DNA of 64,000 bases, taken from the NCBI GenBank assembly GCA_963840855.1, contig CAWJBB010000083.1:1-64000 (forward strand), given 5' to 3'. This document shows positions 33,440 to 57,881 of this stretch, one piece after another. The stretch's first letter is position 1, and every line of letters begins with the position of its first letter. The notes beneath the pieces were generated by a model. It searched no databases. It was given only the letters and a program-made list of their open reading frames with translations, and was not told where the DNA came from. This stretch comes from an uncultured delta proteobacterium (GTDB lineage Bacteria; Desulfobacterota; Binatia; UBA9968). Position numbers and translations under genes: made by a program.

Positions 33440-34516
33440 ATGAACAGCAAAGCGTTTATTCCCCGCGACTACGACGTGTTTGCGGGACTGGATGTGGGCA
33501 AGAAAAGTATCTCGGTGACCTTTACCAATCAGCAAGGGTTTATTCGCTCCTTGCGCGTGCCGTATAGCGCGGAGCATCTTGTGAACCACGTGCGTAAACA
33601 TTTTCCCGATCAGAAAGTGGCCTTTGCCTACGAGGCGGGACCGACGGGCTACGGCTTGTACGATGGGATTGTGGCTCAAGATTACCCGTGCCTGATCGCT
33701 TCGCCATCGATGATCCCCAAAGCGCCCGGACAAAGAGTGAAGACCAATCGGCTCGACAGTCGAGGCATTTCGGAGAATCTTCGTGGCGGACAGCTCAAGA
33801 GCATTCATGTCCCCGCTGTCCTGTACCGTGAGCTGCGCCATTTGACTCAGCTGCGCGACACCTTTGTCAGCGCGATGGTGGCGATGAAGCAGCGCATCAA
33901 GTCGCTGTTGCTTATGGAAGGGCTGGAGTTTCCCCCGGCCCCCGCCGGTAGTCAGTGGTCGTTCATGGTGAAGGCTAAACTGAGAAAGCTTCCCTGTTCT
34001 TCGACCGTGCGTTTTGAGCTTGATCAGTTGCTTGACAGTCTGGAGTTCAACGAGAAGCAGATCGTTAAGACAACCCAACAGATCCGCCGCTTGTGTCAGA
34101 ACGATGCCGAATTGTCCCAGTGTATAAAGTACGTGATGAGCGTGTCCGGGATTGGCCAGATTGTGGCCAGTCAGCTTTTGGCTAGGATCGGCGATTGGCG
34201 TGAGCTGAGAAACGTGCGCCAACTGGGAGCCTTTCTCGGCTTGGTCCCTACCGAGAACTCCACCGGAGAGCGAACCGATCGAGGATCGATCACTCACAGC
34301 GGAGACCCGCGGCTGAGAAGCAAACTCATCCAAGCCGCCTGGTCGGCGATCCGAAAAGACGGTGAGCTGAGGGAATTTTTCCGGGCGGTGTGCCAGAGCC
34401 ATGCGCGCCCGGTGGCGTCGCGGGTGGCCATTGTGGCGGTGGCCAGAAAACTCACGGTACTGATTTCGGTGGTCTTGATGGAACAAAGACCCTATGTAGT
34501 GAGGAAAAAAGTTTAA
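33440..34516 (+). CDS. IS110-family DEDD recombinase
   Basis: GLDVGK, YEAGPTG, KTNRLDS, GLVPTENSTG, AVARKL. Confidence 0.95.
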   Translation: MNSKAFIPRDYDVFAGLDVGKKSISVTFTNQQGFIRSLRVPYSAEHLVNHVRKHFPDQKVAFAYEAGPTGYGLYDGIVAQDYPCLIASPSMIPKAPGQRVKTNRLDSRGISENLRGGQLKSIHVPAVLYRELRHLTQLRDTFVSAMVAMKQRIKSLLLMEGLEFPPAPAGSQWSFMVKAKLRKLPCSSTVRFELDQLLDSLEFNEKQIVKTTQQIRRLCQNDAELSQCIKYVMSVSGIGQIVASQLLARIGDWRELRNVRQLGAFLGLVPTENSTGERTDRGSITHSGDPRLRSKLIQAAWSAIRKDGELREFFRAVCQSHARPVASRVAIVAVARKLTVLISVVLMEQRPYVVRKKV

Positions 34517-53841: not shown

Positions 53842-54921
53842 ATGTCGCTGCTTCGAGTTATTCGAACGGCAGGTATTTCACTTACCTTCGCGATTTCAAC
53901 GTTCACGGCGACAAATGCGTTTGCCGCCAGCCCGCCCATGTCGATTTCCCAACTGGCGCTGTATCAAGGCGCCGACCGAGAAAAGGTTCTTATCGAAGGC
54001 GCCAAGAAAGAGGGCGCTTTTACGCTCTACGGCTCGCATACCTGGTATCGGACCGTCGCTAAGGAGTTCGAGAAGAAATTTCCGTTCATCAAAGTTTCCG
54101 AGTTCCGCACCGATGGCAGGAACCTCATCAAGCGGGCGCTCGAAGAGATCAAGGCGGGCCAATATATCGCGGACGTCATCGCGACCACCGGCGAACAGAT
54201 GGATATCATGAAACGGGAGGGCGTATTTCTAGAACACTATATTCCGGATGCGAGTCAATACCCGGATGAAGTCAAAATGAAAGGGAAAAACGGGTTTTAC
54301 TTTATCGGGCACTACGAGACCTACAACAGCTTGGGGTTCAACACCTCGCTGATTCCTCCCGGCGAGGCGCCAAAAACGATGAATGATCTATTGAACCCGA
54401 AATGGAAAGGAAAAATGTCGATTGTCAGTACCACCACGGGGACTCGGTGGATCGGCAGCACGCTGGAATCCGTGGGACGTGAGTTCCTGGAGAAGATGGC
54501 GGATCAAGATGTGCAGGTTCAAAACATGTCGGGCGCGGCTTTGGCGGGCCTGGTTGTATCCGGCGAGGTGCCGTTATCGCCGACGATTTTCGACGCCAAC
54601 ATCACGCAGGCAAAACAGAAAGGCGCGCCGGTGGAATGGCGGCCGTTAGAGCCCGTCGTGACCACGGTCGCCTATTCCGGTATGACCTTGAAGGCACCCC
54701 ATCCCCATGCTGCCCTTCTATTCCTCGACTATCTTCACTCCAAAGAAGGACAGCAGCTAATCATGAAGGGCGGGCTCTGGTCGCCGCGCAATGATATTGG
54801 TTCGCTGGCACAGAGATTCAAAAAGTCCTACATCGACGAAAAGTACTCGGTCGAGGAGGCGGAGAAAAAATACGCCGAGTGGGATGGCCTCATGCAGCGG
54901 CTATTCATTCGCAGAAAGTAG
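53842..54921 (+). CDS. ABC Fe3+/thiamine-type substrate-binding protein
   Basis: GAKKEG, LLNPKWKGK, APHPHAALLFLDYLHSKEGQ. Confidence 0.85.
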   Translation: MSLLRVIRTAGISLTFAISTFTATNAFAASPPMSISQLALYQGADREKVLIEGAKKEGAFTLYGSHTWYRTVAKEFEKKFPFIKVSEFRTDGRNLIKRALEEIKAGQYIADVIATTGEQMDIMKREGVFLEHYIPDASQYPDEVKMKGKNGFYFIGHYETYNSLGFNTSLIPPGEAPKTMNDLLNPKWKGKMSIVSTTTGTRWIGSTLESVGREFLEKMADQDVQVQNMSGAALAGLVVSGEVPLSPTIFDANITQAKQKGAPVEWRPLEPVVTTVAYSGMTLKAPHPHAALLFLDYLHSKEGQQLIMKGGLWSPRNDIGSLAQRFKKSYIDEKYSVEEAEKKYAEWDGLMQRLFIRRK

Positions 54922-55135
54922 GCTGCTCAGGGTAGTTTCGAGTCTCGGGTCTAGAGTCTCGAGTTAACTCGAAATCACAAACCGCCTCTAGTGGGTTTGA
55001 ACTGCCCCTCCTTCATCCCGCAACGAGACTGCGTGGCAATCCGCGAAAGCGCGCTGATGTCATGCTGATTATTATGAAAGCGATGGATTCCGTAACGGCT
55101 GTGATTAATATAACGGATCGAGGAGGAAAGCAGTT

Positions 55136-56176
55136 ATGGAAAACATCGCACTGGACGTTCATAAGAAGTATACCTGGGCACGAGTAGAGAATACCAAAGG
55201 AGACCGCTTGTACGAATGTCGATTGGTGCATGCTCATGGAACGATCAAGAACTTTGTTAAACGATGGACTGCAGGATCTCCTGTGGCCGTGGAGACGGTG
55301 GGGAACTGGTACTGGGTGGTCGATGAGATCGAAACCGGAGGAGGAAAGCCGCAACTGGTCAACGCGCGGTTGGCGAAGCTGATGATGGGCAACGTCAACA
55401 AGAGCGACAAGCTGGATGCTAAAGGGATGAACCATCTGCAAAGAAACGGGACTTTGCCGACGGTTTGGATCCCTCCTTCTTCGGTTCGCGATGCCCGGGA
55501 GTTGCCGCGCACGCGCATGGTGCTCAGTAGGCAGCGTACCCAACTGAAGAACCGGGTGCACGCCACACTGGGTAAGTACGGTTTGGTGGTCGAAGGAGCA
55601 ACCGATGCCTTTGGCAAGCGCGGGCGTAAGATCATGAGCGCGCTTATGGCCGGGCTTCCGCCCCATACTCAACAAGGGCTTGAACGTGTGCTCGACCAAC
55701 TGGATCACATCGAAGAGAATCTCGAAATCATTGAACGACAAATGCAGGAGGTCTTTGCGCCGTGTGCTGAAACTAACTGGCTTAAAACCCTGCCCGGGGT
55801 AGGTGATATCCTGGCCGTGGTGCTTTGGACCGAGATCGGTACCATTGAGCGCTTCGGCCGTGCCGAACAACTGGCGAGCTACGCCGGGTTGGTGGCGCGG
55901 GAGCACTCCAGCGGCGGCAAGATTCGCTTTGGAGCGGTGCGCCGCGATGTCAACGTGTATCTGAAGTGGGCCTTTGTGGAAGCGGCCAACAGCTCGATCC
56001 TTAATTGCGAGCGTTGTGGCTATGGTCATATCAGCCGACTTTACCAACGGATCAAAGCCCGCCGAGGTCACGGCAAGGCCAAGGTGGCCGTGGCCCGCCA
56101 CCTCGCTGAGGCCAGTTTTTGGATGCTTAAGAAAGGAGAACCCTATCGGGAACCGATGTCGTCCACACAACGCTAA
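55136..56176 (+). CDS. IS110-family DEDD recombinase
   Basis: ALDVHK, AVET, KSDKLDA, SYAGLV.REHSSGG, AVARHL. Confidence 0.95.
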   Translation: MENIALDVHKKYTWARVENTKGDRLYECRLVHAHGTIKNFVKRWTAGSPVAVETVGNWYWVVDEIETGGGKPQLVNARLAKLMMGNVNKSDKLDAKGMNHLQRNGTLPTVWIPPSSVRDARELPRTRMVLSRQRTQLKNRVHATLGKYGLVVEGATDAFGKRGRKIMSALMAGLPPHTQQGLERVLDQLDHIEENLEIIERQMQEVFAPCAETNWLKTLPGVGDILAVVLWTEIGTIERFGRAEQLASYAGLVAREHSSGGKIRFGAVRRDVNVYLKWAFVEAANSSILNCERCGYGHISRLYQRIKARRGHGKAKVAVARHLAEASFWMLKKGEPYREPMSSTQR

Positions 56177-56310
56177 GCGCGCCCTGCTCATGGGTCCACC
56201 GAGACCCGCATGCTGATTGCGACAGCGTTGTGAAATATTTCTCTGCCGCACAAGACGGCGAATAGATGAGTCCGATAACATCGGGTTAGAATTACGGACG
56301 ACGGGAATAG
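56177..56310 (+). ncRNA. Putative seek/bridge RNA of IS110 #2
   Basis: ctgctca, hairpin, catgctga (target); hairpin, atagatga (donor). Confidence 0.75.
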
Positions 56311-56383
56311 GTTTGCGCAGAAACATTTTAGGAGTGCTCGATTCGGGAATTAACAGCCACCTTGACAAAGCTTTCATAGATGA

Positions 56384-56477
56384 GCGGAGCGAAGCATCTC
56401 GCATTTTCAAGGTGTTACGAAGACGAGATTCTTCGGCGGAGTTTATCCTGAGCGTGTCGAAGGGCCTCAGAATGACA
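56384..56477. repeat. Right part of the REP-like target, with a nested CCTGAGC-N3-TCGAAGG unit
   Basis: gcggagcgaagcatctcg...cgagattcttcg[..atcctgagcgtgtcgaaggg]cctcagaatgaca. Confidence 0.75.
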
Positions 56478-56540
56478 ATGCCATACAGCCTCCAAGCGAG
56501 GGAGGAAAGAGGTGGCGCGACGGTAAGACTCAAAAATCAA

Positions 56541-57881
56541 TTAGGTGATCGCCAGAGTTTTAATTAGCCGCAAAAAATATTTCTCATGAAGGCCCAGGGC
56601 CTTTGCAGCCGCCGCGCGATTCCCGTTCGATTGCTCCAGGGCTTGAGAAACCAACTCACGCCGGGCCGTCTCCATCGCTGCGCGATAGGAACGCGTATCC
56701 GGCGTCACACGCGAATCTGTCCCGATGAACCGGCTGGGTAAATCTTTGACAGAAATTTCCGGTCCCCGGCCAAGCACCACCGCCCGCTCGATAGTGTTGG
56801 CGAGCTCGCGCACGTTTCCCGGCCACGCGTATGCTGAAAGTTTTGCCATCCCCTCGGAGGTTATCTCCAGGAATTTCTTTTTTGACTCCCGCGCGTAGCG
56901 GCGCATGAAGTGTTGAGCGAGAGCGGGAATGTCCTCGGTTCTTTCCCGCAACGGCGGCAGCGTGATCGGAATGACGTTCAGACGATGATAGAGGTCTTCG
57001 CGGAATCGCCCTTCCGCTACGGCGTTTTCCAATTCTCGATTCGTTGCCGCAACGATCCGCACATTGACTCGGATTGGAGCCCTTCCGCCCACCCGATCGA
57101 ATTCGCGCTCCTGGAGAAACCTCAGAAGCTTCGTCTGCAGTTCCGGCGAAACATCGCCGATCTCATCGAGGAAAACCGTACCGCCGTTGGCCAACTCCAT
57201 CTTTCCCTTCTTGAGCTGATTGGCTCCCGTGAAAGCGCCTTTTTCATGCCCGAAAAGCTCGCTTTCCAATAATTCTTTCGATAGACCCACACAATTAATG
57301 GCCACGAAGGGCCGCTCTTTTCTTTCGCTCCAGTTATGAATGGCGCGAGCGAATATCTCTTTTCCAGTGCCGCTCTCTCCCAAGAGCAATACCGTGGCAT
57401 TGCTGGCGGCGGCCTTTCGCGCAGTTTCAGTGGCTTCGGCAATTTTGTTGCTTTGTCCGATAATGAGCCGATGGCGGTTGTCGGTCTCTTCTGTGAGCAA
57501 TTCCAAGCTGCGCTTCAATCCCTCTCTTTCCAGGGCTTTGCGCACAACGATATCGAAGTGATTCCCATCCACGGGCTTGGTAATGAAGTCATAGGCTCCC
57601 TCCTTCATCGCCTCAACCGCAGTTTCTATGGAACCATGTGCGGTAATTACTATAACCGGAACATCGATTCCCTCGTTGCGCAACGCGCGGAGCACTTCGA
57701 TCCCGCCCATTTTGGGCATTTGCAGATCGAGCAACACCAAATCCGGCACTTCCTTCCGGATTGCCGCGACCGCCTGCTCGCCGTTGCCGGCGGTAGCCAC
57801 GTCGCATTCCAGCGGACGCAGTCTCACCTCCAAGAGACGCCGCGAAGCGGGGTCGTCATCGGCAATCAGAACTCTGTTCAT
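56541..57881 (-). CDS. Sigma54-dependent NtrC-family response regulator
   Basis: REC domain; GESGTGKE; GAFTGA; WPGNVREL; Fis HTH. Confidence 0.95.
   Translation of the reverse strand: MNRVLIADDDPASRRLLEVRLRPLECDVATAGNGEQAVAAIRKEVPDLVLLDLQMPKMGGIEVLRALRNEGIDVPVIVITAHGSIETAVEAMKEGAYDFITKPVDGNHFDIVVRKALEREGLKRSLELLTEETDNRHRLIIGQSNKIAEATETARKAAASNATVLLLGESGTGKEIFARAIHNWSERKERPFVAINCVGLSKELLESELFGHEKGAFTGANQLKKGKMELANGGTVFLDEIGDVSPELQTKLLRFLQEREFDRVGGRAPIRVNVRIVAATNRELENAVAEGRFREDLYHRLNVIPITLPPLRERTEDIPALAQHFMRRYARESKKKFLEITSEGMAKLSAYAWPGNVRELANTIERAVVLGRGPEISVKDLPSRFIGTDSRVTPDTRSYRAAMETARRELVSQALEQSNGNRAAAAKALGLHEKYFLRLIKTLAIT

Follow-up and report, generated by a model that had tools for sequence, protein, structure and literature searches.

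The window analysed here (64,000 nt of contig CAWJBB010000083.1, denoted C83) carries a 1315-bp insertion sequence (IS) at positions 55069-56383 of the forward strand, with the right-hand TGA counted in. All coordinates refer to this window unless another contig of the same genome, such as C2, C10, C34 or C87, is named. The element belongs to the IS110 family, is of the IS1111 type, and is located in the spacer between two convergent genes, 53842-54921 (+) and 56541-57881 (-), whose names, read from their translations, would be periplasmic-binding-protein-like and response-regulator-like, respectively. We describe the element, the hairpin repeat that it interrupts and the RNA that is predicted to guide it there.

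The insertion sequence, its transposase and its target

The element and its insertion site comprise the following features:

55069-56383 (+): insertion sequence; at the empty sites, matches to the query 55040-56500 in the own genome are interrupted at bases 29 and 1342 and overlap by 3 bases
55136-56176 (+): tnp, a 346-residue DEDD/serine transposase of the IS110 family; the sole long open frame, assigned by Pfam, NCBIfam and alignment to IS621
55025-55068 (+): left part of the interrupted repeat unit, ending in the left target and core gtcatgcTGA (55059-55068; GTCATGCTGA at C83:55059)
56384-56492 (+): right part of the interrupted repeat unit, with the rest of the first hairpin (gcggagcGAAGCATC) and a second, inverted hairpin unit (GTCATTCTGA, minus strand, 56476)
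55074-55081 (+): left subterminal inverted repeat ATGAAAGC, the reverse complement of 56370-56377
56370-56377 (+): right subterminal inverted repeat GCTTTCAT, after which come aga and TGA; unchanged in all 48 aligned homologues

The ends of the element were fixed by two uninterrupted copies of its target repeat in the same genome (C10:64474-64602 and C2:64410-64490), in which the left and right flanks are contiguous with a 3-base overlap and read gcgcgctgatgtcatgcTGAgcggagcgaagc. These element-free copies bear out the empty site that an earlier note on this DNA had reconstructed. Apart from the element itself, a search of the genome with 55040-56500 detected a single diverged copy, on C87, and many short matches to the flanks. 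TGA is found at both junctions of the window copy, and its third base can be assigned to either side. In seven homologous loci (L021, L023, L045, L064, L070, L095 and L111) the left junction reads TGA and the right one TGG, and the guide termed T below follows with a C instead of a T at this position, so that the exchanged core is TG.

With 207 bp of non-coding sequence 3' of the stop codon versus 67 bp 5' of the start, the element shows the IS1111 layout, in which the longer non-coding region lies downstream of tnp (PMC11187229; PMC11208160; both sources are cited from excerpts throughout). Its subterminal inverted repeats of 8 bp are shorter than the usual 11-13 bp (PMC11187229), yet they lie inside the span of 7-17 bp given for the group (PMC11208160). 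Between the unique flanks and the repeats we find tgattatt on the left and aga on the right. These are 11 bases with the core counted once, their split varying with the core assignment, and they exceed by one the sum of 7 + 3 for IS1111 elements, whose left and right terminal extensions beyond the repeats measure 7 (or 6) bp and 3 bp, respectively. The label of the earlier note, an IS1111-type element, is upheld by the IS110-family DEDD transposase, the long downstream non-coding region and the subterminal inverted repeats. Three deviations from the IS1111 norm are an A for P in the GL-P----SG motif, the 8-bp repeats and the one extra base in the terminal extensions.

As evidenced by domain searches, the tnp product matches PF01548 (DEDD_Tnp_IS110, E 1.4e-10) and PF02371 (the C-terminal Transposase_20 domain, E 4.7e-19), and it scores 216 bits against NCBIfam NF033542, 'IS110 family RNA-guided transposase', for which the cut-off is 140. 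The C-terminal domain aligns to the IS621 transposase (PDB 8wt6) with E 5.7e-11, and in this strong stretch the SG of EHSSGG (S259-G260) falls on the SG within the ESG of IS621. D7, E53, D91, D94 and the SG motif at S258-S259-G260 are candidates for the catalytic residues; of these, E53, D91 and D94 align to IS621 only within a weak stretch of 4.6 bits, and D7 was picked by eye. IS1111 transposases comprise 330-350 residues and carry the motif GL-P----S(t)G (PMC11187229); the length of 346 residues fits, and the sequence reads GLVAREHSSG, with the A in the place of P. Note that residues 122-263 (frame 55136-56173) also give a weak, sub-threshold match to NF052498, 'TIGR-Tas system RNA-guided endonuclease', with 35 bits against a cut-off of 100.

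A cluster search, in which 8000 candidates were scored and 6558 proteins fell at E up to 0.001, yielded among the matches listed 120 clusters at 81-97% identity to tnp, nearly all of 346 residues and many on contigs of 1.2-1.5 kb. In a plasmid collection (best 5000 records) all matches were below 60% identity, and at most 34% among the top matches listed; their annotation is IS110 family, in some cases ISGsu4-like or ISMch4-like. A protein-pattern scan with one genome per species found 17 loci at 48-87% identity, and the record titles name metagenome-assembled genomes (MAGs) of Candidatus Binatia, Nitrospirota/Nitrospirales, Chloroflexota, Planctomycetota and others. Two further IS110-family transposase genes were noted in the same genome. 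One of them, at 33488-34495 (+) of the window, is 25% identical to tnp and presumably the 'element #1' of the earlier note, with tblastn matches of the same statistics at C7:88050-89057, C27:133391-132384 and C40:4783-5790. The other is 26% identical over 379 aligned positions and present in three copies (C2:18251-19348, C2:25046-23949 and C3:100983-99886).

The target is a hairpin of the form GTC-ATNCT-GAG...GA-AGN'AT-C that resembles repetitive extragenic palindromic (REP) sequences, being short, repeated, palindromic and extragenic, and the element sits at the border of stem and loop. Of the 76 GTCATNCTGA sites, 30 have a GAAG(N')ATC within the following 45 nt, and in every one of these N' is the complementary base (17 T, 9 C, 4 G); the hairpin stem thus varies by compensation. 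Matches to the interrupted 186-bp unit (55025-55068 plus 56384-56492) number 24 across the genome. The exact 12-mer CATGCTGAGCGG is confined to the two empty sites, CATGCTGAGC is common to about four to seven further sites, and spare target hairpins of the matching class (GTCATGCTGAGC) number about four. The description of the site as a 'multi-copy safe target' in the earlier note therefore holds as far as a repeated intergenic hairpin is concerned, but 'multi-copy' is an overstatement. Flanks of the type GTCAT(T/C/G)CTGAG...GAAG(A/G/C)ATC were also seen at L025-L029, L032, L048 and L051-L116, from Nitrospirales- and Binatia-labelled MAGs and many soil metagenome contigs, and the hairpin repeat family appears to be common to distant lineages.

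The predicted downstream RNA and its putative target guides

A structured RNA module of about 120 nt (56166-56286) follows 3' of tnp, its 5' arm overlapping the last codons of the gene. It is composed of the following parts:

56166-56232 (+): first RNA module, with the putative target-binding loop (RNAalifold consensus and covariation)
56166-56174 with 56224-56232 (+): outer stem, overlapping the stop codon at 56174-56176
56178-56181 with 56218-56221 (+): inner stem (RNAalifold consensus)
56182-56190 (+): guide T (CCCTGCTCA), complementary to the top strand of the core and right flank, TGAGCGGAG (56381-56389)
56191-56208 (+): central hairpin (RNAalifold consensus)
56209-56217 (+): guide B (CATGCTGAT), whose first 8 bases equal the top strand of the left flank and core (55061-55068) and would pair with the bottom strand
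56233-56286 (+): second RNA module, with a loop (56233-56243), a hairpin (56244-56260), ATAGATGA (56262-56269) and a further hairpin (56271-56285)

We aligned 48 distinct downstream regions, in which columns 1-125 are conserved and the next 75 or so are not, with TTGAC and the last 22 bases again invariant. RNAalifold was run on 44 of these, leaving out L029 (a deletion), L108 and L123 (identical to kept rows over this stretch) and L156 (not identical), and gave a consensus of 29 pairs in five helices. On this structure 99.3% of the cells are paired, and seven pairs have changed on both sides (31 cells), a number that compares to a mean of 2.7 in shuffled alignments and was reached in none of 500 shuffles; sliding the partners by 1-3 columns as a control left 0-3 such pairs. 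The comparison of homologous non-coding regions that the earlier note had proposed thus reveals a conserved fold with covariation in two of the five helices, the outer stem (five pairs) and the central hairpin (two pairs). The other three, including the hairpins of the second module, are invariant, and covariation neither supports nor contradicts them. The window sequence alone folds in the same way (z = -2.4), and the GGGTC (56192)/GACCC (56203) and GCCG (56245)/CGGC (56256) hairpins of the earlier note were found at the positions given there. When the RNA model was used as a query, the own genome returned the two IS copies only, with no solo modules, and 8 of 100 related genomes matched. The 16-base motif of the second RNA loop is present in at least 120 stretches of metagenome contigs, and its conservation may extend to wider IS1111 subfamilies. 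Among 137 loci retrieved, about 80 (within L038-L157) carry this motif and lack the other landmarks of the subfamily, some of them being too short.

Guides T and B form the two sides of the first internal loop. The CTGCTCA at 56184-56190 and the CATGCTGA at 56209-56216, equal to left flank and core (55061-55068), had both been pointed out in the earlier note and are positioned as described. Guide T and TGAGCGGAG form seven Watson-Crick pairs and one G:U pair, with one C-A mismatch. When the 185-nt non-coding region was shuffled 5000 times by mononucleotide, 53 shuffles reached the 8-nt match to left flank and core. The complement to core and right flank (five exact bases, then G:U) was reached 2905 times, so that within this element by itself it has no significance; what supports the right-flank guide is the comparison of homologues.

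For this comparison 139 sequences were scanned (the window, C87 and L021-L157), of which 59 show the subfamily landmarks; L030, L126 and L140, which have a different register, and C87, a known exception treated below, were dropped from the test of guides against flanks. In 47 distinct pairs of T guide and right flank a mean of 4.87 out of 7 variable positions was identical, compared to 3.15 after shuffling, and in 21 distinct pairs of B guide and left flank the mean was 4.38 out of 6, compared to 3.25, with none of 5000 shuffles reaching the observed value in either case. The excess is confined to the loop, at T positions 3-9 and B positions -5 to -7, and for T it stops at position 10, the loop edge. 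Positions -5 and -6 of guide B follow the flank with frequencies of 0.90 and 1.00, as opposed to 0.38 and 0.57 in the shuffled sets, and at position -5 the base is identical in 32 of 35 loci and a U opposite a bottom-strand G in the other three. An unbiased search for mutual information between RNA columns and positions in flanks and ends, over all combinations, placed the predicted pairs on top and in the same register: column 51 and left position -5 are identical in 91% of cases, column 50 and left -6 in 100%, and column 25 and right +3 are complementary in 87%. In all of 47 loci, column 27 complements the base that follows TG.

Individual loci illustrate the rule. L033 and L065 combine the guide gcctgctca with the site tgagcaggc (9/9) and cctctga with cctcTGA, and in L021, L023 and L111 gcatcca stands against tggatgc and aacctga against aaccTGA. 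The L027 guide pairs over nine positions with two wobbles, and the T guide of L034 matches at 8 of 9. L030, with a protein identity of 55%, is inserted at an unrelated site, gaaacTG/tcatagg, and its guides gaaattga and gctgtgaca obey the same rule. The B guide of the window copy fits the G class, the rarest class of the hairpin; T- and C-class versions flank homologues from other phyla, and there the B guides follow the class. The top-strand complement lies 5' of the bottom-strand complement, as in IS1111 seekRNAs, where the top-strand complement also comes first (PMC11187229). In the seven TGA/TGG loci the invariant final A of guide B matches the first base of the element, not the target, and it is tempting to speculate that it has a role after strand exchange. 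We also considered that the guide matches might be flank DNA copied into the element and rejected this, as they occupy fixed positions in a conserved loop and one of them is a reverse complement. The earlier note had named copies at unrelated sites as an argument against guidance; the homologues with other guides sit at sites matching those guides, and the C87 copy is the sole exception.

This copy (C87:140877-142159, locus L002) is decayed, with about 52 bases of the left end missing and the gene split into two frames, and it is mosaic in make-up. Over the first 300 bases it shares 94-99% identity with the window copy and over its middle part 66-83% with all sequences compared, and its RNA region is 93-95% identical to the 'aacc' subfamily versus 84-87% to the window copy. 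It sits in a G-class hairpin, gtcatgc/...TGAgcccgcgggcGAAGCATC (GTCATGC/TGA), a site that fits the guides of the window copy, and its own guides read ggaaccca and taacctga, so that only 2 of 7 T positions match. The target predicted from these guides, AACCTG/GGTTCC, has exactly two occurrences in the genome, both inside another hairpin repeat, the chance expectation for a 12-mer being, by our arithmetic, about 0.85 occurrences in 14.2 Mb (both strands). We rejected C87 as a refutation of RNA guidance because the copy is left-truncated, frameshifted and mosaic; gene conversion between elements, or insertion guided in trans by the RNA of another element, would each explain it. A second hairpin family in the genome, AACCTGG(A/G)TTCCGGC...GCCGGAA (e.g. 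C34:36020 (-), C41:57736 (+) and C27:148119-148862), resembles the 'aacc'-subfamily sites of other genomes and holds the exact 12-base target predicted from the C87 guides. Another IS110-like remnant was observed about 2 kb upstream of the C87 copy, at C87:138075-139032.

We consider it very probable that the window copy is an IS1111-type element with its own guide RNA of the seekRNA or bridge type, aimed at a REP-like hairpin between convergent genes. The earlier note had arrived at a guide RNA directed to a REP-like repeat, and the two guides indeed lie on the two sides of a covarying loop and change with the flanks across loci. Several observations weigh against this interpretation. A permissive Rfam scan of 54500-57000 gave no match at E up to 1, so that no curated RNA family covers the module. 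The T-guide matches are imperfect in many homologues, with 7/7 positions in 3 of the 47 pairs, 6/7 in 13 and at most 3 in 6. The chance level of the right-flank match in this element and the mismatched C87 copy belong here too, as do the left donor end, the single intact copy and the contig data discussed in the next section.

The chance-level T match and the C87 mismatch are what one would expect if the protein alone picked the target, with the downstream region serving, for example, the stability of the mRNA 3' end or transposase binding, and with incidental matches to the flanks. Against this, both sides of the loop change with the flanks while the surrounding stems stay paired through compensatory changes, the signal coincides with the extent of the loop, the rule also holds for a distant relative inserted at a different site, and RNA guidance has been demonstrated by experiment in related IS (PMC11187229; PMC11208160). 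Target choice by the protein alone is strongly disfavoured and in our estimate very improbable.

Donor ends, putative circle junction and mobility

The second module bears on the recognition of the donor. Its ATAGATGA at 56262-56269 equals the right end plus core (56376-56383) over 8 nt, a match that 45 of 5000 shuffles reach and whose position and identity agree with the earlier note. It adjoins a hairpin in the same arrangement as guide B, and like the right end it is invariant in the close family. In the distant relatives L030 and L034 the second loop contains AGAGATGA and the right end reads cAGAGATG, both sharing AGAGATG, although the two loci may represent one event. For the left end the picture is different: the non-coding region contains no complement to core and left end longer than 4 nt, a length that 4874 of 5000 shuffles attain, and no co-variation with left-end variants is seen for the 5' loop of the second module (alignment columns 72-82). 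The left end may be recognised through the inverted repeats or by the protein, a question that concerns IS1111 elements generally.

These two negative findings, together with the invariance of helices 4 and 5, which leaves them outside the covariation signal, would also fit a scheme in which only the first module works. A seekRNA of about 70-80 nt would then find the target, the ATAGATGA module would be a scaffold or part of a precursor, and the protein would recognise the donor ends via the subterminal repeats. In line with this, seekRNAs of 82-96 nt suffice for ISEc11, ISKpn4 and ISPa11, and end recognition in IS1111 elements may differ (PMC11187229). The rarity of the 8-nt identity among shuffles, its guide-like placement next to a hairpin, the joint change of loop and right end in L030 and L034, and a second module as conserved as the first argue for the opposite, and we regard the first-module scheme as a possibility on the unlikely side.

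Two further elements are placed such that they would form a promoter in a circular form:

55070-55075 (+): TATTAT, putative -10 half of the circle-junction promoter; homologues read TATTAT, TAATAT, TACTAT or AATTAT
56362-56367 (+): TTGACA, putative -35 half; all 48 aligned homologues have TTGAC at the same distance from the end

The 16 bases from TTGACA to the right end and the one base before TATTAT would add up to a 17-nt spacer in the circle. Both hexamers of the TTGACA-17-TATTAT arrangement proposed in the earlier note are thus present, at the proposed spacing, and both halves are conserved. For the integrated copy a simple scan of 54900-56600 found no sigma-70-like promoter or terminator. 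Junction promoters that read tnp and the downstream region have been described for the family (PMC11187229), and circles of ISPpu10 form a strong hybrid promoter (PMC12288879, likewise cited from an excerpt).

For the full two-module RNA that we favour, the following cycle can be proposed. The element would leave its site in circular form, with the right end joined to the left end at the TG(A) core, and the resulting junction would bring TTGACA and TATTAT into promoter distance, to read through tnp and the downstream non-coding region. The 3' part of this transcript, from the last tnp codons onward, would fold into the seekRNA/bridge-type RNA of about 120 nt, which would be processed and bound by the protein. 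In the first internal loop the 9-nt 5' side would pair with the top strand of core and right target and the 8-nt 3' side with the bottom strand of left target and core, and the 8-nt copy of right end and core in the second loop probably holds the donor junction. The RNA-loaded DEDD/serine transposase would then exchange strands at TG.

Public sequencing data contain part of the stretch in 20 of 24 listed runs from 12 studies, mostly soil metagenomes. Four runs were examined, all as contigs, which cannot show rare circles, and no circle-junction joint was among the joints listed. One run yielded a 1371-base contig over 55040-56410 with 27 differences. Contigs from an RNA library cover 55808-56013 and 56053-56389, spanning the 3' part of tnp and all of the downstream region, with 4 and 7 differences and have other flanks, pointing to a related copy; DNA carry-over is possible, and they do not prove transcription. 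We also found joints skipping 1315 bases (X1, X15), 1312 bases (X2) and 1318 bases with three other letters in between (X15), with short sides of 26-41 letters. They were rejected as evidence for excision, as they may stem from other uninterrupted copies of the repeat.

All of this machinery might be as described and the window copy nevertheless a resident relic that no longer moves in this organism. Such a view is favoured by the single intact copy in a genome of 7.1 Mb, accompanied by one decayed mosaic, by the missing circle junction in the contigs, by the lack of a promoter in the integrated state, and by the C-A mismatch and G:U pair between guide T and the occupied site. It is at odds with a full-length frame of 346 residues as in the relatives, a cluster of 97% identity elsewhere, and the intact state of both ends, both promoter halves and all RNA helices, and rare circles would be invisible in contigs. 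We hold such a relic unlikely.

Relation to known elements and meaning for the family

A close parallel among described systems is ISPa11 of Pseudomonas aeruginosa, an IS1111 element with a 96-nt seekRNA that shares the transposase family and size class, the downstream non-coding region, the guide order and a REP hairpin as target (PMC11187229), and for which a circular intermediate was reported (PMC11187229). Host lineage and repeat family differ, and the likeness is one of features, with RNA and activity predicted on our side. ISEc11 and ISXne4 are close relatives with retained stems, in which the loop bases that match the target have changed along with the insertion site (PMC11187229). Here the swaps follow variants of one hairpin family (ATGCT, ATTCT, ATCCT) and a second family (aaccTGgatgcc), and in place of one pair of elements there are dozens of natural insertions, known from their sequences alone.

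With the bridge RNA of IS621 from the IS110 group (8WT6-8WT9) the element has in common the DEDD and serine recombinase, a dinucleotide core and a REP target, as well as an internal loop whose two sides read opposite strands, one to the left and one to the right of the core, and a second loop with a match to the donor (PMC11208160; PMC11187229). In contrast to IS621, the RNA lies at the 3' rather than the 5' end of the element, the order of guides is reversed, the subterminal repeats are long (8 bp), there is one recognisable donor guide, and the core is TG. In IS621 the core is CT. ISPpu10 and ISPpu9 of Pseudomonas putida KT2440 are likewise IS110-family elements that reside in REP sequences. 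A bridge RNA has been predicted for six elements that include ISPpu10 (PMC11208160), and in ISPpu9 a separable small-RNA module also occurs alone, unlike the module described here, which was found in the two IS copies only. Bridge RNAs have been predicted in the right end of 93% of IS1111 elements (PMC11208160).

The attributes 'compact' and 'new' in the earlier note are accordingly too strong, as a protein of 346 residues and an RNA of about 120 nt are of the usual size for the family. It is already in print that IS1111 elements are RNA-guided, may target REP sequences and undergo natural re-direction (PMC11187229; PMC11208160), and as the mechanism was first described in 2024, the value of the present case is that of an example and a data set from a family abundant in soil metagenomes. 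The natural insertions map the target-reading positions of the RNA base by base, nine on one side and seven to eight on the other. They show TG to be the exchanged core, with a third base that is read differently by the two guides, and they revealed no RNA match to the left end. These points could guide the choice or engineering of IS1111-type recombinases, and they bear on how IS1111 elements recognise their donor ends.

The mosaic copy on C87 further suggests, as a tentative and on balance doubtful idea, that guide modules of this IS family are exchanged between co-resident elements or used in trans. If this were true, this family of soil bacteria would be a natural record of how RNA-guided recombinases get reprogrammed, and it would also record recombinases following the compensatory variants of a hairpin repeat that is common to several phyla.

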